64,000 nucleotides of DNA, taken from contig SVBA01000008.1 in assembly GCA_015059095.1 (NCBI GenBank), forward strand, positions 21,533-85,532, given 5' to 3'. How positions within the stretch are numbered: the stretch's first letter is position 1; each line of letters opens with the position of its first letter. This DNA comes from Erysipelotrichaceae bacterium (GTDB lineage: Bacteria; Bacillota_I; Bacilli_A; RFN20; CAG-449). A program made the translations under genes and the position numbers. The notes under the pieces were generated by a model. It had not been told where the DNA came from. It made no database searches and saw nothing but the letters and a program-made list of their open reading frames with translations. Shown here in pieces: positions 3,978-34,664 of the stretch.

Positions 3978-6900
3978 CTATTTGATTGCAAAGTCATAAA
4001 TTCTAATATCATCGTAATAAGTGTAATTATTTGGAGCACCATTTTGACATCCACTATTACCTGTGAATGCTAAATTACAACTTGATGTAAAGTTAATTGC
4101 TTCTGCACTAGATAAAGTAATTTCATATCCGGTTGTTAATCCACTATCTACTTCTGTAATTGCAAATTTGACATTATTACCATTTCTAACTATCATGACA
4201 TCAATCCATTCTCCATATGGAAGATATACATAGCTGTTTTCAGAATTCTTTTCATTTAATTTTGAATCAATAACAAATCTTATACGGTTTTGTCCTTCTA
4301 CAAGTTTATATGAAACATTGAAATATGGAGCTTTAACGTCTTTTACATTACCATTAGCATCAGTAGGATTACCAATACCTAATAAGTAACATGATGAATT
4401 AGAGTTAGTAACTAAACCAGAAATATTCATTCTAGCCATAATAGTGAAATCATTTGTTCCTAAGTCAATTCCATTAATTGTAAAGTGGTTTCCACCTTCT
4501 TTCTTTTGATCTAATTTAATAGCATTATTTTCTAAATCATTAGAATCTTTTCCATATACTATAGAAGCAGTAGAATCAACAACATTAGTACCCGACATTG
4601 TTGTAACCTTACCAGTAACAGTTTGATTAGTACCTGTATTAGCAATTGTTCCATTATTGAATGTGTATTCAACAATTGGATTAATTACTGTAATTTCAAA
4701 TGAATCAGTTACAGATTCATATTCTGTTTCACCTAATACATTAGTCACTTTTACAGTTAATGTTGCTTTATCACTGGTAACACTATTTGCAAGTGTTTTT
4801 GAAACAGCATAGTATTTTCCATCTTGATAAACTACTTCAATTACAGCTTCATCACTAGAAGTCCATTCGACTTTATAACTAGTTTTGCCTTCAACTAAGA
4901 TATCAACTTTTAATTCAGTTGAACTTTCTTCGATTACTTTTTCAATTGTATTAGAAATTTCGATTTCTTCAACTTTAGTTAATTTTTCAAGAGTTTCAGT
5001 TTCTACATGATTACAATCATAACATCCTCTACTTCTTTCGCCTGCTTGATCAAAAGTCGGATAAGAAACATATTCCCAATCTTTATAATCGTGACCTGCG
5101 TAAATTGTAATATTTTCAAGAGTTGTCTCTACTTTTTCTTCTGTAAAATATTTCTTACATTCACTACATTGATAATGCGCTAAATTACCAGTATCTACAC
5201 AGTTAGTTGGAACTTTTGCTTCAATTAATGTTCCATAATTATGTGCAACTATTGAATTAGGAATTTCTTTAATAATTTTAGAATTACAAATAGTGCAAGT
5301 TGCTGATTGAGTAGCATTGGTTACACAAGTTGCATTATTGTCATCAACATATTCACCATAAGTATGCTTAATTAATGCGCCTTCTTTATCAATAGCAAAG
5401 TCATATACTTGAATATCATCATAGTAAGTGTAATTATTAGGAGCACCATTTTGACATCCACTATTACCTGTGAATCCTAAGTTACAATTAGATGTAAAGT
5501 TAATTGTTTCCGCATTAGGTAGAACAATTTCATAACCACTAGAAGTACCACTATCAACTTCAGTAATAACTAATGAAACGTTATTTCCTGATCTAATAAC
5601 CATTACTTCAATCCATTCTCCATATGGAAGATATACTAGACTTCCTTCTGAATTCTTTTCATTAACCTTAGAATTGATAACAAATCTAACTCTATTCTTT
5701 TCACCGTCTAATTTATAAGAAATATTGAAATATGGAGCTTTAACGTCCTTTACATTACCAAGTTCATCAGTTGGATTACCAATACCTAATAAGTAACATG
5801 ATGAATTAGAGTTAGTAACTGCTCCAGAAATATTCATTCTAGCCATGATAGTAAAATCATTAGTTCCTAAGTCAATTCCATTAATTGTAAAGTGATTTCC
5901 GCCTTCTTTCTTTTGGCCTAATTTAATTGAGTTATTATCTAAATCATTAGAATCTTTTCCATATTCTATAGAAGCAGAAGAATCAATAACATTAGTACCC
6001 GACATTGTTGTAACCTTACCAGTAACAGTTTGATTAGTACCTGTATTAACAATTTTTGCATCATTGAAATTGTATTCAACAATTGGATTAATAACACTTA
6101 CTTCCATAGAATCATCATATGACTCATATTCAACTTCACCTAATACGTTAGTTACAGTTGCAGTTAAAGTAGTTTTTAAACTAGTTACTGAACTATCAAT
6201 GTGTTGAGCAACAGCATAATATTTACCATTTTTATAAACAACTTTAATAATATTTTCATTATTAGAAATCCATTTAACATCGTAGTTATCAGCACCTTCA
6301 GTTAGAATATCTACCTTTAATTCGATTTCTTGACCTTCGATAATTTTATTTGCACTAGTAGAAATTTCAAATTCTTCTACTTTAATTAATTTTGGAAGGA
6401 CTTCATCTTCTCTAGCAGTACAAGAGCAAACTCTATATCTTGAACCCTCCTCATCAAATGTTGGTTCAGTAGTTACCCATTCACCATAAGTGTGTTGATA
6501 TCCCTTATTTATTTCTTCATAAGGAACTTCAACTTTTTCTTCTGTAAAATAATGTTTGCAACTACTACATTGATAATGTGCTAAAACTTCTTCAACAGTA
6601 CAACTACCTTCTACAAAAGGAATTAGTTCACCATAAATATGTTCTAATTTAGTTCCTTTTATATCACGAGTATTTGTTGCATCACAATCATCACATTTAG
6701 CAGTTTCTGTACAATTAGATGAACAAGTTGGATTATTATTAGAAACATACTTTGTAAATGAGTGAGATTCTTTTGAATCAGGAATTTCTCGAGTATTTAT
6801 TGCATCACAATAATCACATATTGCAGTTTCTGTTTCATTTGAAGTACAAGTTGCATCATTATTGCTTTCATACTTTGTAAACGTATGTTCAATTTTTGAA

Positions 6901-7280
6901 TCTTTAATTACTCTAGTATCTGTTTTATTACAGCCATCACAAATTGCAGTTTCTGTACCATTTTTTGTACAAGTTGCATCATTATTACTAACATAATTAG
7001 TAAATGAGTGGGTTTGATGAGGATTAACATACTCTTTTGTTTCAGAATATCCACATTCACAAACTCTTTCCTCTAAAGTTTTATCATCATTTACTTTCCA
7101 AGAAGAAAATTCATGAGCACTTTCATTAAATCTTTCATCACATTCAAAGCATTCTCTCCAGTGATTTGTTTCATCATAATGATATCCACCCGTCAAAGAA
7201 TGATTATGAGAACAACCTGCAATAACTATTAATCCAACAGGTAATGCCAAACTTAATAATATTTTTTTAATAAGTTTCAT
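3978..7280 (-). CDS. Cys-rich repeat surface lipoprotein, paralog of the upstream gene. Architecture: lipobox, short Cys-rich ~37-aa repeats, then two near-identical copies of a [Cys-rich linker, Big_2, LamG-like] module.
   Basis: RBS AAAGGAG then ATG. MKLIKKILLSLALPVGLIVIAGC lipoprotein signal. Repeats H-x-FTKY-x-SNNDATC-x-NGTETAIC-D-x-C. Big_2-like stretch (VEEIEIS...KVDIL...YKVEWTSSDEAVIEVV...ATLTVKVTN). LamG-like stretch (NHFTINGIDLGTNDFTIMARMNISG...LPYGEWIEVMVIRSGNNV) occurs twice. Confidence 0.8.
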   Translation of the reverse strand: MKLIKKILLSLALPVGLIVIAGCSHNHSLTGGYHYDETNHWRECFECDERFNESAHEFSSWKVNDDKTLEERVCECGYSETKEYVNPHQTHSFTNYVSNNDATCTKNGTETAICDGCNKTDTRVIKDSKIEHTFTKYESNNDATCTSNETETAICDYCDAINTREIPDSKESHSFTKYVSNNNPTCSSNCTETAKCDDCDATNTRDIKGTKLEHIYGELIPFVEGSCTVEEVLAHYQCSSCKHYFTEEKVEVPYEEINKGYQHTYGEWVTTEPTFDEEGSRYRVCSCTAREDEVLPKLIKVEEFEISTSANKIIEGQEIELKVDILTEGADNYDVKWISNNENIIKVVYKNGKYYAVAQHIDSSVTSLKTTLTATVTNVLGEVEYESYDDSMEVSVINPIVEYNFNDAKIVNTGTNQTVTGKVTTMSGTNVIDSSASIEYGKDSNDLDNNSIKLGQKKEGGNHFTINGIDLGTNDFTIMARMNISGAVTNSNSSCYLLGIGNPTDELGNVKDVKAPYFNISYKLDGEKNRVRFVINSKVNEKNSEGSLVYLPYGEWIEVMVIRSGNNVSLVITEVDSGTSSGYEIVLPNAETINFTSNCNLGFTGNSGCQNGAPNNYTYYDDIQVYDFAIDKEGALIKHTYGEYVDDNNATCVTNATQSATCTICNSKIIKEIPNSIVAHNYGTLIEAKVPTNCVDTGNLAHYQCSECKKYFTEEKVETTLENITIYAGHDYKDWEYVSYPTFDQAGERSRGCYDCNHVETETLEKLTKVEEIEISNTIEKVIEESSTELKVDILVEGKTSYKVEWTSSDEAVIEVVYQDGKYYAVSKTLANSVTSDKATLTVKVTNVLGETEYESVTDSFEITVINPIVEYTFNNGTIANTGTNQTVTGKVTTMSGTNVVDSTASIVYGKDSNDLENNAIKLDQKKEGGNHFTINGIDLGTNDFTIMARMNISGLVTNSNSSCYLLGIGNPTDANGNVKDVKAPYFNVSYKLVEGQNRIRFVIDSKLNEKNSENSYVYLPYGEWIDVMIVRNGNNVKFAITEVDSGLTTGYEITLSSAEAINFTSSCNLAFTGNSGCQNGAPNNYTYYDDIRIYDFAIK

Positions 7281-7371
7281 AGTTTACTCCTTTCTTAAGA
7301 GAGTTGCCTTTTGTTTAAAGTAAATCTAATTTATTGACAAAAGACAAAAACAATAAATATAAGTTAAATAA

Positions 7372-10300
7372 TTAAATCTTATTATTATAGATTAATTCAA
7401 TTCCCTTTGAATCAATCGCTCCATCATATACTGCGATATTATCATAAGCAATCTTACCTGGATGATAAGACCAAGATTCACCAACGTATGCTCCAAAGTT
7501 CAATACATTACTTGTAAAGTTAGTATCTTCAGCAATAGTTAATGATGTAATTACTCGACCATCAACATATAAATGAACTCTATCTTTTTGACGTACTAAC
7601 ACAACATTATGCCATTCACCATAGCTCATATTTGGATCAATTACTTTAGTAGCAATATCACTATCAGAAGTTCTAATATTGTAATAGAATTTTCCATCAG
7701 CTTCTTGTCTTACTGTAACTCTAAATCCATCATTACAATCATCAACATTACTTGTACCAAAGATATATGAACTATTTCCTGAAGAAAGAGTAGAACCTAC
7801 AGGAACATTGATCCAAGTCGAGATTGTAAAGTCATTAGTACCGAAATTAAATCCATTAATATTTGTATAAGCACCTACACTATTTTGAGTTAAAATAGCA
7901 CCATTTTCATCTCCATCAATGCCTTGAGTATATTTGATAACGTCTTCATCTAAGAAATATAATCCACTAATTTTAACTGGTTTAACAATTACTTGATCAT
8001 TTGATCCTGAATTAGTAATATTTCCATTTAAGAAATCGACATAGACATCCGCTCTATCCTTATTTAGCAATACAACTTCAAATTTATATGTATTATTATC
8101 TTCAGCAACTACTTCAATTTCTTGATTGATAACTTCATTAATCGAAGCTTCTGGCACTTTTAATTGATAATAGCCTTCTGACTTTTTAACGAAATAATTG
8201 CTGTGAGATTTTATCTCTTTAATTCCATAGTCATTATTTTGATCATCTTTACAAATTAAATCAGCAACATAATTTCCATCAATTATTTGAGCATCAGTTA
8301 AATAAATATCTTCAACTGATACACTATTTGTAACATATCCTTTTTCATCAAATGTAACAAATTTACTTCTATCATGAGTATAGTAATTACTTACACCTGT
8401 TTGATTATGATATTGAGAAGTAACTAATGTATTTTTATCTTTATAATAAGAAACACATGGTAAGATATATAATTCTTCTGGAGCCTTTTCTAAACCAAAT
8501 GTACTATATGGAATGAAAATCTCCACTTGATAGCCATCACTAGTTAAATTAGTATCAGCAATAATATCTAATTTATAATCACCAGTTCTTTCAAGCCATG
8601 CCCAACCATCGCTTGCAGGAGTTTGGTAGATATAAGTTTTTGATGTATTTGAATGCGGATAACATCTAATTTGATATGTATTTCCAACCGCAATTTCTTT
8701 TCCTAATGTGAATATAGTTTCAACATGAGTTTTATTTCTAATAATTGCATCCTTAACATCGTATCCAACAAAAATACCCTTTTCACCAAAATAAGTAGAT
8801 ACTTCTTGTGAAATAATATTTTCTGATACATTAGTTAAAGTTTTATATGAACGGCCATATTTCTCATCATTTGGATTACCATCTACACAAATTTCAGAGA
8901 AATATGCTCTTGATTTTTCTTTTTTACCATTACAAATAGTATCAAACTCGATACCATCTTTAAATTTTTCAATTTCCTCTTTCTTGACTTTTGCTCTGAA
9001 CTTACCATTATTTATATTTTCAATAATCAAGTTTTCAGGAGTTTCAAAAGTAGGATTTACTAAATATTTATCAGAAGATGATTTTTCATTTAAAGTAACA
9101 AACGAAGCTTCAACTTCAAATTCATATTCATAATAACCAGTTTCTTGATTTAGCATATTAGATGTAAAGAATACATTTGGAGTATCCATTTTTCTTAATA
9201 CTGCTCCATCATTTTCCATAAAGATATAGTGTTCTTGAGGATTAGTTTGTCCTGCAACATTGGCATTAGTTACATTACAATAATCCCATGGTGCAGCTTT
9301 TTGAGATTGACTTTCGTTTTCCGCATGAATTACATTAGGTAAAACCATAACTCCATCTAATTTTGTATTTGATCCAAAACTAGTCCAAGGAATAAATATC
9401 TCAATAGTGTATCCTTCATTTTTATTACTATTTAATCCACCCAATCCATTATTATCTTGAATTGTAGTTCCTGTTAGCATATCAAATTGATCAAATGACC
9501 ATGGATATGATTCTCCAATAACACCAGAATAACCTACCTTCACATTATTAGCAGTAATTCTTAGTTGAAGACATTCTGGAGTAATCTCTGTCACTCCATA
9601 AGGTGCAAACAAGATTTCCATTCCACTATTTAAACCAATTGGTCTAACTGTTTCATCAGCATAATAAACATAGTTATCTTTAACAACAAATCCAAAATAT
9701 GCTCCTTTATCAGTCATATAAGAACTTGCTGATAATTTGACTTCTTTACCAAATGCTGTTTTATAAACAAAGTTAGCATCTTGAACTTCTGCCCAAATTG
9801 GTTCATCTAACTTACCATCAATGCTCATTGTTTCATCTTCGACAACTAAATCATTGATAATATCATCATATTGAACCATTCCTTGATTTGAAACGATTTT
9901 CCAAGTATTTGGTTTTGTTAATAAACTTCCTTGAGTACCCGCCCAAATTCTATCACCATCTAGAGATGCACTTTCAACGTGGTTAAATGCCGTATAAGTT
10001 CTAATATACTTATGATTTTCTACTCCTAATACATCCCAAGGAACAAACGCTTCACATACATAGCCTTCGCAAGAACTAGTATTCATGTTTCCTTTTACAT
10101 AAGAAGCTCCTTCCCAAGTAAATGGGGAAGTCATCCATTGCATTTTTCCTAAACCATTCAAATTAAGTCTCCAAGAAGAATCCTTATAATCAACTTTTAC
10201 TCCATCACCAGTAGGAATAATTCTAATACAATGCGCTTTGGTATCTAAATTACCAAAACCCTTAAAATGAACTTCTACTGATGTGTTTCTTGAAGGTCTT

Positions 10301-10638
10301 CTTTCTTCGTTATAATAAACTGCATAATCATCAACTATAACTCCAAAATATACACCTTTTTCTCCTATATAACACATTGATTCTAATTTAACATCCGGAG
10401 AAGCAGAGTTAACTACAGTGTATGAATTCTTTTTTGCAATCATCCACTCTTTTTCATCTAAAACCCCATCAATATCCATTCCTTCATCTTTATCTAAATT
10501 AACTTTTTGGTTATTTTGATTTTCTGGAATTGAATATTCTGGAAATTTGAATCCCTCAACAACTTTTGAACATGAAGATAAAGTAGCTAAAGCAGAAAGG
10601 ATAACTAAAATTTTTGATAGTTTTGATTTTTTCTTCAT
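7372..10638 (-). CDS. Surface lipoprotein with four CBM9-like (DOMON-type) carbohydrate-binding modules and a C-terminal LamG-like domain
   Basis: RBS AAAGGAG. N-terminus MKKKSKLSKILVILSALATLSSC has a lipobox. Repeated I/VDG-x-LDE-x-W ... YFGVIVDD ... RPSRNTSVEVHF-type CBM9 signatures. C-terminal NGFNFGTNDFTISTWINV...YGEWHNVVLVRQKDRVHLYVDG is LamG-like. Confidence 0.7.
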   Translation of the reverse strand: MKKKSKLSKILVILSALATLSSCSKVVEGFKFPEYSIPENQNNQKVNLDKDEGMDIDGVLDEKEWMIAKKNSYTVVNSASPDVKLESMCYIGEKGVYFGVIVDDYAVYYNEERRPSRNTSVEVHFKGFGNLDTKAHCIRIIPTGDGVKVDYKDSSWRLNLNGLGKMQWMTSPFTWEGASYVKGNMNTSSCEGYVCEAFVPWDVLGVENHKYIRTYTAFNHVESASLDGDRIWAGTQGSLLTKPNTWKIVSNQGMVQYDDIINDLVVEDETMSIDGKLDEPIWAEVQDANFVYKTAFGKEVKLSASSYMTDKGAYFGFVVKDNYVYYADETVRPIGLNSGMEILFAPYGVTEITPECLQLRITANNVKVGYSGVIGESYPWSFDQFDMLTGTTIQDNNGLGGLNSNKNEGYTIEIFIPWTSFGSNTKLDGVMVLPNVIHAENESQSQKAAPWDYCNVTNANVAGQTNPQEHYIFMENDGAVLRKMDTPNVFFTSNMLNQETGYYEYEFEVEASFVTLNEKSSSDKYLVNPTFETPENLIIENINNGKFRAKVKKEEIEKFKDGIEFDTICNGKKEKSRAYFSEICVDGNPNDEKYGRSYKTLTNVSENIISQEVSTYFGEKGIFVGYDVKDAIIRNKTHVETIFTLGKEIAVGNTYQIRCYPHSNTSKTYIYQTPASDGWAWLERTGDYKLDIIADTNLTSDGYQVEIFIPYSTFGLEKAPEELYILPCVSYYKDKNTLVTSQYHNQTGVSNYYTHDRSKFVTFDEKGYVTNSVSVEDIYLTDAQIIDGNYVADLICKDDQNNDYGIKEIKSHSNYFVKKSEGYYQLKVPEASINEVINQEIEVVAEDNNTYKFEVVLLNKDRADVYVDFLNGNITNSGSNDQVIVKPVKISGLYFLDEDVIKYTQGIDGDENGAILTQNSVGAYTNINGFNFGTNDFTISTWINVPVGSTLSSGNSSYIFGTSNVDDCNDGFRVTVRQEADGKFYYNIRTSDSDIATKVIDPNMSYGEWHNVVLVRQKDRVHLYVDGRVITSLTIAEDTNFTSNVLNFGAYVGESWSYHPGKIAYDNIAVYDGAIDSKGIELIYNNKI

Positions 10639-16042: not shown

Positions 16043-16358
16043 ATTTACCACCTTTAACCATGTAAACGGTTTCTTTCTATATTTGCATTATATTATTAAA
16101 ATATAATATAGTAAACGTCGAATATTACCCAATAAGTGTAAAATATTCTCATAGATAAAAAATAATTATTTTTTTCGAAAATTTCGGATAAAAGAATAAT
16201 ATTATATATTATAAAGTATTATTTTTAAAAAAAATTGGTTATTTTTACCAAAATTATTTTTCTGAAAAAAGAAAAAAATTCTCAATTTATGAATTATTAT
16301 TCTTTTTTTATTTGTATTATTTTCTCTGAATGTTTAAAATGATTTTAGGAGGTGCTAT

Positions 16359-17198
16359 ATGTATATCAATTCCAATAATGAAAATATTATTTACAATTCC
16401 ATTGATAAAAACGACTTCCTTTCTATTTCAATGGCAGGTATCACTAATCCAAATCCTAATTACCACATCATTCATAATATCAACAAAAATTTCTTCTATG
16501 ATTACTATGTTTTCGAATATGTAATTAGTGGTAAAGGATACATTGAATATGAAAATAATAAAATAATTGAAGTTAACACTGGTGACTTTTATTTTCTAAA
16601 TAAGCTTTGTAAACACATATATTATTCTGATAGACGCAATCCATTTAAAAAAATATTTATCGTTGTTAAAGGTCACTTCATTGATTCACTTATTAACGCT
16701 TTTGATATTAATGAATCAGTGATAGTTACTAAAGCAAATGTTGAACCAATTATCTTAAATATTCATAGTGAGTTAACAAAAGAAGAAATTAATTACCAAA
16801 ATATATCCCATGATATATTGAATCTATTTTACTCTTTTAATAGAAACTTATATGAAGATAAAACAAACGCAATGAAATTGCCTGATTTAATTAGAAAATA
16901 CTTAGATACTTCCTTAACTCAAAAATTAACTCTTGAAAGAATAAGTGAAGAATTGAACGTTAGTAAATCACACATCGAAAGAGTCTTTAAAGAAAGATTT
17001 AATACAACTCCACTTAATTACTTTATGAAGCAAAAAATTAAATATGCGTGTGCATTATTAGTTAACACTTCTTATTCAATCAATGTTATTGCAGAACAAA
17101 CAGGTTTTACTGATTCTAAATATATGGCTAAATGCATAAAAAAAGAAACAGGTATGACCCCGCTTCAATATAGAAAATATAAAACCAATACTTATTAA
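16359..17198 (+). CDS. AraC/XylS-family transcriptional regulator (cupin N-domain + dual HTH), divergent from the glycan operon
   Basis: RBS GGAGGTG. C-terminal LTLERISEELNVSKSHIERVFKERFNTTPLNYFMKQKIKYACALL...TGFTDSKYMAKCIKKETGMTPLQYRK matches the AraC HTH signature. Confidence 0.85.
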   Translation: MYINSNNENIIYNSIDKNDFLSISMAGITNPNPNYHIIHNINKNFFYDYYVFEYVISGKGYIEYENNKIIEVNTGDFYFLNKLCKHIYYSDRRNPFKKIFIVVKGHFIDSLINAFDINESVIVTKANVEPIILNIHSELTKEEINYQNISHDILNLFYSFNRNLYEDKTNAMKLPDLIRKYLDTSLTQKLTLERISEELNVSKSHIERVFKERFNTTPLNYFMKQKIKYACALLVNTSYSINVIAEQTGFTDSKYMAKCIKKETGMTPLQYRKYKTNTY

Positions 17199-31260: not shown

Positions 31261-31548
31261 TTAAATCCTATACAATACTACCAATAAGAAAATAATAAAA
31301 CCTGCTAATGAAGTAAAACCAAATATCTTTAACGCTGTTTTTTCTTCTTTTCTAGCACAATGTTTAATTTCTAATAAGCATGCAAGTGCATTAAGTAAAA
31401 AGAAAAGTGAAGTACAAACAAATACTAAAGTTAAAAATAATTCATTATTCTTAACCCAGAATAAAATAATAAATACAATTGCAGGTAAAGTAACTACATA
31501 TTTAATAATTGCAAGTACCTTACTAATTTTTGATTCATAATCTATCAT
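31261..31548 (-). CDS. Small membrane protein (3 TM), translationally coupled to ccpA
   Basis: Start 3 nt after the ccpA stop. Hydrophobic. No recognisable family. Confidence 0.4.
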   Translation of the reverse strand: MIDYESKISKVLAIIKYVVTLPAIVFIILFWVKNNELFLTLVFVCTSLFFLLNALACLLEIKHCARKEEKTALKIFGFTSLAGFIIFLLVVLYRI

Positions 31549-31550
31549 AA

Positions 31551-32537
31551 TTATTCTTTAGTTGAAGCTCTTTGTACGAACGAACCTTTAAATTCATATT
31601 CTCTATTCTTCAACTCTCCCTTTAATAATTTTGTTAGCATTCTCATTGCAATTGATCCTACATCATACATATCTAAATCAAACGAAGAAATAGTAGGTCT
31701 AGCAATTGAAGAATACTTAGTACCAATAATTGAAAGAACTTGAACATCTTCTGGAACTCTTAATCCAATATCAATCGCTGCATTTTGGATCGCACAAGCA
31801 ATTGAGTCTCTTGGACAAATAAAATATCCTTTTTTAATTGCTTTAAAATAATCTACAAAATAAGAATATGTTTCATGATATGAGTTAGGCATTTGAACTA
31901 CTTCAAATTGTTCTTTACCAACAACATTTTCAACAATATCTTCTAAAGATGCTATTAGCTTACCTTCGTTAGAAACTCTAACAAATTTAATTTCTTGATT
32001 CGCTGTATGTTTTTTAATAAACTTTTCTAATGCTTCAGCAAAATTCAAAGTAATAGAAGCAATCTTTTCACCTTGAACTTTATTACCAATAATAACGGAA
32101 GGTACGTTATAAGAAGCAATAGATTTAATATCTTTTTCATCTAATTCATCATCAAAAATAATCGCACCATCAACATGGGAAGTAATTAATTTTGAAATAA
32201 CATCTTGAACTTCATCTTGAGAATGTTTTGTAACAAATAATGTTGTTTGATAACCATAAATCTTACCGATATCAATCATACCTGATAATAAATTAGAGAT
32301 ATGAACATAGTTAGTATTTGGAATTACAATACCAATATTAGTTGTTCTAGAAGTTGCTAAACCTTGAGCTAAAGCATTAGGACGGTATCCTAATCTTTTA
32401 ATAGTTTCTTCAACTCTTTCTTTAGTTTCTTGAGTTACATTAGATTGTTTATTGATTACTCTTGATACTGTTGCAAGAGATACTCCTGCCGCTTTTGCTA
32501 CTTCATAAATTGTAACTCTATCCTTATAAACACCCAT
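31551..32537 (-). CDS. ccpA: LacI-family regulator, CcpA-like catabolite control protein
   Basis: RBS GGAGG. VTIYEVAKAAGVSLATVSRVINKQSNVTQETKERVEETIKRLGYRPNALAQGLATSRTTNIGIVIP and C-terminal AMRMLTKLL closely follow the CcpA pattern. Confidence 0.7.
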   Translation of the reverse strand: MGVYKDRVTIYEVAKAAGVSLATVSRVINKQSNVTQETKERVEETIKRLGYRPNALAQGLATSRTTNIGIVIPNTNYVHISNLLSGMIDIGKIYGYQTTLFVTKHSQDEVQDVISKLITSHVDGAIIFDDELDEKDIKSIASYNVPSVIIGNKVQGEKIASITLNFAEALEKFIKKHTANQEIKFVRVSNEGKLIASLEDIVENVVGKEQFEVVQMPNSYHETYSYFVDYFKAIKKGYFICPRDSIACAIQNAAIDIGLRVPEDVQVLSIIGTKYSSIARPTISSFDLDMYDVGSIAMRMLTKLLKGELKNREYEFKGSFVQRASTKE

Positions 32538-32550
32538 AAATTACCTCCAA

Positions 32551-32578
32551 AATAAATAAAAAGCGCTTTGCCGCGCTT
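32551..32578 (-). terminator. Rho-independent terminator of the small Cys-rich gene
   Basis: Minus-strand AAGCGC-GGCAAA-GCGCTT followed by TTTTATTTATT. Confidence 0.65.
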
Positions 32579-32603
32579 CTTAATGTGAAATAGTTGACCT
32601 TTA

Positions 32604-32888
32604 TTATAAATGTATACTTAAGACTTTTTGTTTGATTTGACCTAAAGCTTCTTTGGTTTTAGTTTTCACATCTTCCATTTCTAATTTTTCAATATCAGAA
32701 ACGATTTGTGAAATCTTTTCTTTTGCCTTAGTCATTACCTTTTCTTTTCCTTGCTCTTTTGAACAAGTATTACATTCTTCTTTTAAGCATTCGGATTCTG
32801 ATGTACAAGATTTCATGCAAATCATTTTCATTACAATCATCCCGATACCCATACCTAAACATAAAGGCATAACTTTAATTTGCATCAT
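32604..32888 (-). CDS. Small (95 aa) membrane-anchored Cys-rich protein with K/E-rich coiled-coil tail
   Basis: Start ATGATG at 32888 after AAGGGAG; the track's longer ORF is an N-terminal over-extension. Sequence MMQIKVMPLCLGMGIGMIVMKMICMKSCTSESECLKEECNTCSKEQ... Has its own consensus promoter and terminator. Confidence 0.55.
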   Translation of the reverse strand: MMQIKVMPLCLGMGIGMIVMKMICMKSCTSESECLKEECNTCSKEQGKEKVMTKAKEKISQIVSDIEKLEMEDVKTKTKEALGQIKQKVLSIHL

Positions 32889-32928
32889 TACCACTCCCTT
32901 ATGAAAGTGTGTTTCAAAGCGCACTTTC

Positions 32929-32957
32929 ATTATAAATGAAAATATTTTCATAGTCAA
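32929..32957 (-). promoter_or_regulatory. Consensus sigma-A promoter (TTGACT-17-TATAAT) whose spacer and downstream region are palindromic operators
   Basis: -35 TTGACT (32952-57), -10 TATAAT (32929-34). The spacer ATGAAAATATTTTCAT is a perfect palindrome. Downstream inverted repeat ATGAAAGTG-N12-CACTTTCAT (32901-32930) sits between -10 and the RBS. Confidence 0.6.
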
Positions 32958-33077
32958 CATTACATACAAAATTGTAAAAATAATGAAGCTAGAAAAATGG
33001 TCAACTGATTAATTAGTTCCTTAATACTTCACACAATCATTATTATATCCTAAGTTTATAGAATTATTATTTTTTCA

Positions 33078-34038: not shown

Positions 34039-34373
34039 ACTTACACACCTCCTACGGTTTTATAGCCTTCTTTGACACGGATATTATTTTATATGAAAAT
34101 TCCATAAGTGTCAATTAAAATTTCATCATTAAGTAATTTTACTTACTTTTATAAAAAATAAAAGTTCGATTTATAAAATAAAAAATTTTCCAATGTTATT
34201 AGCAATTTATTTTTTTTGAAAAAAATCAAGTTAAATTTTAATATACTTCTAATAAATATTTTTATAAATTTATCAAGGTTTGTTTGAATTATTTATCAAC
34301 ACAAAATACTAAACTTGAAAAATATTTCATTCACTCAAGTTTTGCTTATATTTAACTTATAAGGAGCATTTTT

Positions 34374-34664
34374 ATGAGATTAAAAGAATTAAGAAAGAAA
34401 GCAGATATTTCTCAAGCAGAACTAGGAAAGATACTAGGAGTTACAGGTCAAACAGTACTAAACTGGGAAAGTGGCATTTATGAACCAAAAATCGAACATT
34501 TAATTAAACTAGCAGATTTCTTTAATGTATCAATCGATTATTTAGTAGAAAGACCAAAAGAAGTTTCTAAAGCCGATGAAATATATAACGAATTATCAAA
34601 AATTTCTTATGATGATTTATTAAAATACATTAAAGAAAAATTAAAAGAAAATGATAAGCAATAA
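34374..34664 (+). CDS. XRE-family HTH transcriptional regulator
   Basis: RBS AAGGAG. ISQAELGKILGVTGQTVLNWESGIYEPKIEHLIKLADFFNVSIDYLV is a Cro/C1-type HTH. Confidence 0.7.
   Translation: MRLKELRKKADISQAELGKILGVTGQTVLNWESGIYEPKIEHLIKLADFFNVSIDYLVERPKEVSKADEIYNELSKISYDDLLKYIKEKLKENDKQ

Follow-up and report, generated by a model that had tools for sequence, protein, structure and literature searches.

A candidate autoregulated CcpA-like operon with a miniature YtxH-like leader cistron in an uncultured Bacilli genome

We take the ccpA genes of Lactobacillus pentosus, L. casei and Staphylococcus xylosus to be autoregulated through a catabolite-responsive element (cre) in their own promoter, and in Bacillus subtilis the ytxGH-brxC operon presumably adjoins aroA-ccpA. 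Among regulatory leaders, hairpins of the 5' untranslated region (UTR) that sequester the Shine-Dalgarno sequence include the fourU-type RNA thermometers. The present study concerns a locus comparable to these systems, in which a near-consensus promoter with a palindromic spacer precedes a small membrane-protein gene, a terminator and a gene for a CcpA-like LacI-family regulator. It lies in a stretch of 64,000 nucleotides (nt) with 27.6 % GC from an Erysipelotrichaceae bacterium (contig SVBA01000008.1), the whole of which is hereafter called the window.

CcpA autoregulation is mentioned for group A Streptococcus (PMC8359418). Sites without the central CG are experimentally established in C. 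difficile, with creCD RRGAAAANGTTTTCWW as the motif (PMC3510511), and split-palindrome sites with spacers of variable length, reported to span 0-40 nt, bind CcpA in C. acetobutylicum (cre_var; PMC5263246). YtxH is an uncharacterised stress protein, and in B. subtilis the ytxGH-brxC genes form a sigma-B/sigma-H general-stress operon with a bacilliredoxin (PMC8113031). Set beside these systems, the locus would on balance be an autoregulated CcpA-like operon whose leader cistron, a mini-ytxH, has an occluded ribosome-binding site and is followed by a leaky terminator.

The promoter palindrome and the regulator gene

All elements of the locus lie on the minus strand, and each one described in the initial annotation (promoter, palindrome, second repeat, open reading frame (ORF) and terminator) is present there. 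The -35 hexamer TTGACT (32952-32957) and the -10 hexamer TATAAT (32929-32934) are separated by 17 nt and match the consensus at 11 of 12 positions, so that the supposedly perfect consensus promoter is real and conserved but near-consensus. The hexamers read TTGAC(T/A) in nearly all lineages (TTGTTT in L021) and TATAAT in most (TAAAAT in L020, TATACT in L021). No single DNA element is unusual against chance in a window of such GC content: promoters matching the consensus at 11 or more of 12 positions were observed 9 times where 7.1 would be expected, perfect 16-bp palindromes numbered 6 for an expected 3.9, and inverted repeats with arms of 9 bp numbered 42 for an expected 23. The significance comes from conservation. 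Among close relatives the block from the -35 hexamer to the start codon is identical at 68-71 of 72-76 positions (92-99 %) and the 70 nt upstream at only 50-66 %, conservation starting exactly at the -35 hexamer, and synonymous sites in the same relatives are near saturation (synonymous divergence, dS, 0.8-1.7).

Sixteen of the 17 spacer positions are filled by the perfect 16-bp palindrome ATGAAAATATTTTCAT (32936-32951), a cre-like putative operator. The initial annotation had rightly seen this symmetry, which is maintained in more than 25 lineages, as befits an operator. Across all lineages the conserved core is WTGAAAR-NN-YTTTCAW, while the centre varies (TA, CA/TG, AA, TC or TT) and is CG in none. 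Aligned with the canonical cre TGWAANCGNTNWCA, the 14-mer TGAAAATATTTTCA matches at 12 of 14 positions, both mismatches falling on the central CG, which is TA here; the TGWAA/WWCA half-sites of a canonical cre, in a 14-bp palindrome near a promoter, are present and its central CG is absent. With creCD of C. difficile the full palindrome shares 14 of 16 positions. Two lineages (L026, L027) hold a second perfect copy 30 bp upstream, and L030-L034 an additional CG-centred cre-like site abutting the -35 hexamer. That the palindromes bind nothing, their conservation reflecting a constraint on promoter strength through spacer composition and the initial transcribed sequence, would agree with the unremarkable single-sequence statistics and with a regulon that is not detectable in the window. 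We regard this as highly improbable, since the two-fold symmetry is held while the centre varies, the second perfect copy stands outside the spacer, and the palindrome is retained across regulators that are only 50 % identical.

The regulator gene itself (31551-32537, 328 amino acids) starts with an ATG at 32537, preceded by the Shine-Dalgarno sequence GGAGG (32548-32544). Its product scores 215.6 bits on TIGR01481 (ccpA), the next family reaching 111.6 bits, and its domains PF00356 (7e-20) and PF13377 (2.3e-14) indicate a LacI-type helix-turn-helix joined to a core resembling periplasmic binding proteins. The best six sequence matches in the PDB are all CcpA (E 3e-51 to 4e-43), followed at 4e-23 by the next. 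The helix YDxGxxxMRxLTK is kept, MYDVGSIAMRMLTK aligning with LYDIGAVGMRLLTK of S. aureus CcpA. The contacts to HPr-Ser46-P on helix IX, which we take to be Y295, D296, R303 and K307 in B. megaterium numbering, are present in the window regulator. Its helix-turn-helix, about 64 % identical to that of S. aureus CcpA as counted by eye, places it nearer the Bacillus/Staphylococcus type.

Comparison of relatives indicates which gene the promoter accompanies. A genome scan with the regulator protein retrieved 11 loci at 63-76 % identity from metagenome-assembled genomes of uncultured Bacilli/'Erysipelotrichaceae'. Six of the 11 have a diverged small ORF with a terminator; in the other five (L022-L025, L029) the small ORF is absent and TTGAC(T/A)-(A/T)TGAAAA-NN-TTTTCAT-TATAAT stands directly before the regulator gene. 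An exact-pattern scan of Joint Genome Institute metagenomes with ATGAAAATATTTTCAT-N-TATAAT gave 15 loci, four independent ones (L040, L047, L049, L050) being immediately upstream of CcpA-like genes; a metagenome scan with the full pattern of -35 hexamer, palindrome and -10 hexamer found nothing. Nine lineages in all thus lack the small ORF and have the promoter immediately before the regulator gene; one of them (L047) has entirely different neighbours: a methyltransferase gene, an M42 peptidase gene and a gene matching the N-terminal domain of quinolinate phosphoribosyltransferase. The CcpA-like protein of that locus (8824-9834) is 50 % identical to the window regulator. The palindrome follows a transcription-factor gene in different synteny and therefore bears the usual signature of autoregulation. 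From these comparisons we lean towards assigning the near-consensus promoter to the CcpA-like regulator gene, and the spacer palindrome is probably a cre-type autoregulatory operator to which the CcpA-like protein would itself bind. The motif search suggested with the initial annotation has a divided outcome: within the window it returns the site itself and nothing else, and among relatives the palindrome recurs at the regulator genes.

The operator could instead serve another transcription factor that controls the regulator together with the YtxH-like gene, an ArgR/AhrC-like protein or some other global regulator for instance. LacI-family operators do not canonically have TA at the centre, and TATGAAAATATTTTCATT agrees at 16 of 18 positions with the ARG-box consensus TNTGAATWWWWATTCANW, the nearest box compared (as judged by eye). 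Both mismatches, however, hit conserved T/A positions of the ARG box, the half-sites equal those of cre, and the palindrome co-occurs with a CcpA-like gene across different synteny. This alternative would also find favour in the identical palindrome seen in a promoter before an unrelated secreted protein (L044, L045, L048), and it is disfavoured by a similar palindrome before an XRE gene that is not conserved as a TGAAA motif. Altogether we consider it unlikely. The boxes of Rex, CodY, Fur/PerR, CRP/FNR and TnrA do not appear to fit the palindrome.

Some related sites were noted in passing. In L044, L045 (1970-1992) and L048 the palindrome occupies a TTGACA...TATAAT promoter about 130-160 nt upstream of the gene for a 512-amino-acid secreted protein, which has no Pfam family and adjoins a gene for a pyridoxal-phosphate-dependent decarboxylase; it may mark a regulon member in a related organism, or be there by chance. 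Near the locus, a motif in common with an XRE-family gene (34374-34664) was considered and dropped, TGAAAAATATTTCA at 34316-34329 not being conserved. The enclosing repeat AAACTTGA-N16-TCAAGTTT (34311-34342), upstream of the same gene, is conserved in L007 and L008, where it is probably a 5' UTR hairpin or an operator for the XRE regulator itself. At 16060-16075 there is a canonical cre with a CG centre, ATGTAAACGGTTTCTT, which matches WTGNNARCGNWWWCAW at 15 of 16 positions. It falls within the 5' UTR, immediately ahead of the ribosome-binding site, in an ABC sugar transporter/GH43/ConA-like operon running on the minus strand from 16051 down to 3978; an AraC-family regulator gene (16359-17198) is divergent from this operon. 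The end of the GH43 locus (3978-10638) is made up of two tandem paralogous ORFs of 1100 and 1088 amino acids, each with a C-terminal Laminin_G_3/ConA-like domain and otherwise without assignment.

The small membrane-protein gene

Between promoter and regulator lies the small ORF (32604-32885, stop codon TAA at 32606-32604). The initial annotation gave it 95 residues; the gene is real and conserved, and its product has 94 residues from the ATG at 32888 or 93 from the second ATG at 32885, which is the start conserved in relatives. Against eight relatives the ratio of nonsynonymous to synonymous divergence (dN/dS) is 0.14-0.33 at dS 0.8-1.7, and the ORF is a real gene under purifying selection. 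The homology search that had been recommended for it confirms conservation: among 5.8 billion proteins 14 homologues were found at 61-99 % identity, all of them metagenomic, a family-profile search recovered 42 clusters, and an exhaustive HMMER scan of 1.84 billion representatives gave 24 family matches. A peptide-pattern scan of genome contigs for the small protein returned nothing, and its relatives were reached through the regulator protein. Conservation is concentrated in the N-terminus, MQxKVMPLCLGMGIGM, and the C-terminus, KAKEKIxQIVSDIEKLEMxDVKxKTKEALGQIKxKILSIHL. The predicted architecture starts with a transmembrane helix, continues with an acidic linker rich in cysteine and ends in a helical hairpin; AlphaFold2 places helices at residues 8-27, 38-67 and 75-92 with a low-confidence linker (mean predicted local distance difference test score, pLDDT, 65; predicted template-modelling score, pTM, 0.37). 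The cysteines are spaced C-x3-C-x5-C-x4-C-x2-C and not C-x4-C-x3-C-x2-C as first reported. Among close homologues Cys9 and Cys23 alone are invariant, and the linker holds two to five cysteines at positions that are not fixed.

Library searches of Pfam, NCBIfam, PHROGs and PADLOC gave no match to the small protein. In the reverse direction, a library-wide hmmsearch with the family profile matched three true YtxH proteins over their full length (P0050, P0053 and P0055; E 1.2e-5 to 2.3e-4), which score 66-69 bits on PF12732, and hhalign gave the family and YtxH probabilities of 91 % and 80 %, aligning LGMGIGM with LGLGIGA and IEKLEMEDVKTKTKEAL with VDEFDMDDFKETTREKL. The Gly-rich transmembrane helix LGMGIGM is present, with the Cys-rich linker in place of the APKKG motif. 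Synteny points the same way: L035 has the order murC, a gene for a 100-amino-acid transmembrane protein, canonical ytxH and a CcpA-like gene (260 bits on TIGR01481), whose ATG lies 2 nt past the ytxH stop. Because profile similarity is joined by a ytxH in the equivalent position upstream of a CcpA-like gene, we identify the product of the small ORF, from sequence comparison, as a remote and positional YtxH homologue, a divergent mini-YtxH.

The gene product had also been suspected of being toxic or toxin-like. This finds no backing: PHROG and PADLOC gave no match, no antisense promoter is credible, and the protein, a remote relative of YtxH, has a conserved soluble helical domain. Type I toxins are short hydrophobic peptides, usually below 60 amino acids, with an overlapping antisense RNA, which does not describe a protein of 93 residues with a conserved soluble domain. 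An antisense promoter starting from TTGACC on the plus strand (32594-32599) was rejected, its spacer to the nearest -10-like hexamer being 13 nt. Also rejected was an N-terminally extended ORF running through the promoter (a 121-amino-acid ORF from TTG in the window, 118 amino acids in P0001 and P0004), as indels of 1-2 nt in relatives break the frame. Public gene calls that read through the promoter (P0001, P0004, P0031 and P0032, corresponding to window positions 32969-32889), with N-termini such as MLTMKIFSFIMKVRFETHFHKGVV, are annotation artefacts.

The leader, the terminator and the proposed operon

Downstream of the spacer palindrome a second inverted repeat follows, its arms 12 nt apart in the window and 12-14 nt in relatives through indels. 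The 5' arm ATGAAAGTG (32922-32930), which holds a third ATGAAA half-site, overlaps both the -10 hexamer and the start of transcription, which is predicted near G32922 from the position of that hexamer; with such a start the arm would therefore lie mostly outside the RNA. Between the arms (32910-32921), at the predicted 5' end of the mRNA, the alignment of relatives shows a conserved CGCTTTGAAA and then 2-4 nt of variable length; in predicted folds the CGCTTTGAAA region forms an outer helix with the start-codon region. The 3' arm CACTTTCAT (32901-32909) is directly followed by the Shine-Dalgarno sequence of the small ORF, GGGAGTG (32892-32898), with which it is predicted to pair, CACUUUC on GGGAGUG, at -7.8 kcal/mol when folded from the predicted start. 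The Shine-Dalgarno sequence is paired at 4-6 of 6 scored positions in all 14 folded small-ORF UTRs and at 0-4 of 6 in three UTRs whose promoter stands directly on the regulator gene. Where sequences diverge, occlusion is predicted by other pairs, CCCU with GGGG in L021 and CCAUU with AGUGG in L020. RNAalifold yields a consensus hairpin of 8 bp whose closing pair is UA in five, CG in four and UG in three sequences. Rfam gave no match between 31000 and 34500, and its sole match anywhere in the window is a tRNA.

The initial annotation had taken the two palindromes for two operators. From the present comparison the second repeat is probably two elements, an ATGAAAG half-site acting on DNA at -10/+1 and an anti-Shine-Dalgarno element acting on RNA: the 3' arm is better explained by the latter, and the 5' arm, as TATAATGAAA(G/T) or TATAATGAAAG/T, is conserved by itself in lineages with neither 3' arm nor small ORF (L050, L040, L029). 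The 5' UTR hairpin may do no more than keep translation constitutively low. Alternatively, the repeat could be a true split-palindrome operator of the cre_var kind, with the CcpA-like protein acting on both sites in two-site repression. Its 9-bp arms, its spacer of 12-14 nt and the TGAAAR core common to the first palindrome accord with this, as does the experimentally described architecture NxTGTAAA-Yx-TTTACAMx with its reported spacers of 0-40 nt (PMC5263246). A DNA operator is also favoured by the 5' arm, which a promoter firing at the usual distance would leave out of the RNA, and by the ATGAAAA-N13-TTTTCAT that L029 has before the ribosome-binding site of its regulator. Many lineages that keep the first palindrome (L020-L025), however, have a degenerate second repeat or none, L050 keeps the 5' arm but no 3' arm, and the 3' arm covaries with the flank of the Shine-Dalgarno sequence. 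The two-operator arrangement is compatible with an autoregulated operon as an added layer, and we hold it possible, if rather doubtful.

The small ORF is followed by an intrinsic terminator (32549-32582, found by hairpin search and folding) with the stem AAGCGC/GCGCTT and a T-tract. Its ten pairs, of which four are G-C with an A-U extension, are followed by TTTTTATTTATTTT, giving the G+C-rich hairpin and T-tract of an intrinsic terminator. The stem AGCGC..GCGCT is kept in nearly all lineages with the small ORF, distant ones included, and reads AGCGT..ACGCT in L013 and L015. From the stop codon to the terminator runs a motif AAAGGTCAAC...TCACAT (32583-32602), conserved in relatives and partly in distant lineages; no explanation was found for this motif or for the conserved sequence of the terminator stem. 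The gap between the end of the terminator and the ribosome-binding site of the regulator measures only about 8 nt, and neither a sequence scan nor the alignment of relatives revealed a conserved promoter between them or inside the small ORF. Two candidates were discarded, TTCACA-17-AAAAAT at 32712-32684 as not conserved, and a TATAAT at the small-ORF stop codon as lacking a -35 hexamer. With no room for a promoter after the terminator and no conserved one inside the small ORF, transcripts of the regulator must read through, and by this reasoning the terminator must be leaky.

Beyond the regulator, a gene for a 95-amino-acid protein with about three hydrophobic segments (31261-31548) probably shares its operon, because it starts only 2 nt after the regulator stop codon. 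The protein found no family match in library scans, and the ORF is conserved at 96-98 amino acids in relatives with contigs reaching past the regulator. The gene order deoC, small ORF, LacI-family gene, ORF of about 95-98 amino acids and usually then addB was seen at every locus examined, where the contig was long enough. Positions 32957-31261 of the minus strand thus appear, with moderate confidence, to form one transcription unit of promoter, mini-ytxH, leaky terminator, ccpA-like gene and 95-residue membrane-protein gene. Farther upstream, relatives conserve a TATAAT that resembles a -10 hexamer and, behind it, TTGTG(T)GA (33047-33028), both located past the terminator of deoC (33105-33086), and a partly conserved TTGACC (33004-32999) lies about 47 nt upstream of the main -35 hexamer. 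The two may form a second, upstream promoter, whose transcripts would contain both palindromes.

These observations bear on the initial view of the small ORF as a stand-alone gene, namely an autonomous gene for a toxic or stress-specific protein, kept off through two operators by a dedicated repressor that recognises ATGAAA. A strong promoter, palindromes with ATGAAA in common, a terminator of its own and a narrow protein family are what such a gene would have, and the YtxH family occurs in a sigma-B stress operon of B. subtilis (PMC8113031). Against it, lineages that lack the small ORF retain promoter and palindrome, which go with the regulator gene; the regulator downstream of the terminator lacks a promoter of its own; and the 3' arm is predicted to pair with the Shine-Dalgarno sequence, the spacing of the arms varying from 12 to 14 nt. 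The PHROG and PADLOC searches gave no toxin or defence-system matches, and type I toxins do not typically combine a conserved soluble domain with a dN/dS of 0.14-0.33. An autonomous gene is accordingly quite improbable, and the small ORF is better described as the first cistron of the regulator's unit.

Conservation, synteny, coding selection, homology and predicted RNA pairing are the grounds on which we infer what binds the palindrome, where transcription starts and that the terminator is read through. In the proposed mechanism the CcpA-like protein would bind the spacer palindrome, occlude RNA polymerase and so set its own level, and the ATGAAAG half-site at -10/+1 may add to the repression. 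Transcription would start near G32922, giving an RNA without the 5' arm of the second repeat, in which the 3' arm CACUUUC is predicted to pair with GGGAGUG and damp translation of the first cistron. That cistron would yield a membrane-anchored, Cys-rich, miniaturised YtxH-like protein, and the short-stemmed terminator would pass only a fraction of transcripts into the regulator gene.

Several observations weigh against parts of this autoregulated operon. The regulator, at 215.6 bits, falls below the curated equivalog cutoff of TIGR01481 (442 bits), and the L047 protein lacks counterparts of the HPr-contact residues R303 and K307, MRMLTK having become MYMLID; because of this loss the LacI subfamily marked by the palindrome may extend beyond true CcpA. 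A canonical cre has CG where the palindrome has TA, and with such a cre present at 16060-16075 the regulator may prefer CG. The TA-centred site may then be weak, which would fit a homeostatic kind of feedback. The window contains the palindrome only once, and in it searches for the exact and the degenerate palindrome, creCD and the second repeat yielded no regulon and near-matches to palindrome, creCD and second repeat occur at or below chance frequency. Support for the hairpin is modest (UTR z-scores of -1.1 to -4.0, with real covariation at one pair only), and the model does not fully account for arms that are perfectly complementary over 9 bp. As for YtxH, the PF12732 gathering threshold of 37.5 bits is not reached, the window protein being unmatched and two of 18 family members giving E = 0.024.

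A bolder proposal, which we offer as decidedly speculative, is that the mini-YtxH is a membrane-anchored thiol or metal sensor acting with the CcpA-like regulator, by tethering or modulating it for example, and that the arms of the second repeat form a promoter-dependent translational switch. Transcripts from the upstream start would carry the 5' arm, which could free the Shine-Dalgarno sequence. If true, the linkage of YtxH and ccpA, here, in L035 and presumably in B. subtilis, would mean that YtxH couples the membrane or redox state to catabolite control. Apart from this proposal, more than one lineage has a YtxH gene beside a ccpA-like gene, and this adjacency offers a testable lead to YtxH function. 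A small-protein family that is unannotated in its sources ('hypothetical protein' where it is named at all) can now be placed in the YtxH superfamily. The CG-less cre variant WTGAAAR-NN-YTTTCAW is a conserved candidate operator for a divergent CcpA-like regulator in a clade of uncultured low-GC gut and rumen Bacilli.

Likeness to described systems

The regulatory logic proposed for the locus draws on known devices, namely repressor autoregulation, terminator read-through and the masking of a ribosome-binding site; it is tidy and conserved and represents no new kind of system. With autoregulated LacI-family and CcpA genes it has in common a palindromic cre-type site over its own core promoter with half-sites TGAAAR/YTTTCA. 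It differs in a centre that is never CG and in the small membrane-protein gene and terminator that stand between promoter and regulator, and its operator is putative. The palindrome resembles creCD (14 of 16 positions), which belongs to another organism, C. difficile, and the second repeat has the geometry of cre_var, whose core in C. acetobutylicum, again another organism, is TGTAAA-Yx-TTTACA whereas here it is TGAAAR. The leader resembles Shine-Dalgarno-sequestering hairpins and fourU-type thermometers, in that a U-rich CACUUUC or CAUUUUC is predicted to pair, through G-U-rich pairs, with the Shine-Dalgarno sequence just downstream.

Typical YtxH proteins (PF12732) and the window protein both have an N-terminal Gly-rich transmembrane helix with LGxGIG followed by a helical K/E-rich domain that contains (F/L)(D/E)M(D/E)D(F/V)K.(T)T(K/R)E.L. 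Their genes also agree in lying upstream of ccpA, as seen for ytxH in L035. The window protein is, in contrast, about half as long, has a Cys-rich acidic linker in place of APKKGSELRE and stays below the Pfam threshold, and its gene, unlike ytxH of L035, is separated from the regulator gene by a terminator.

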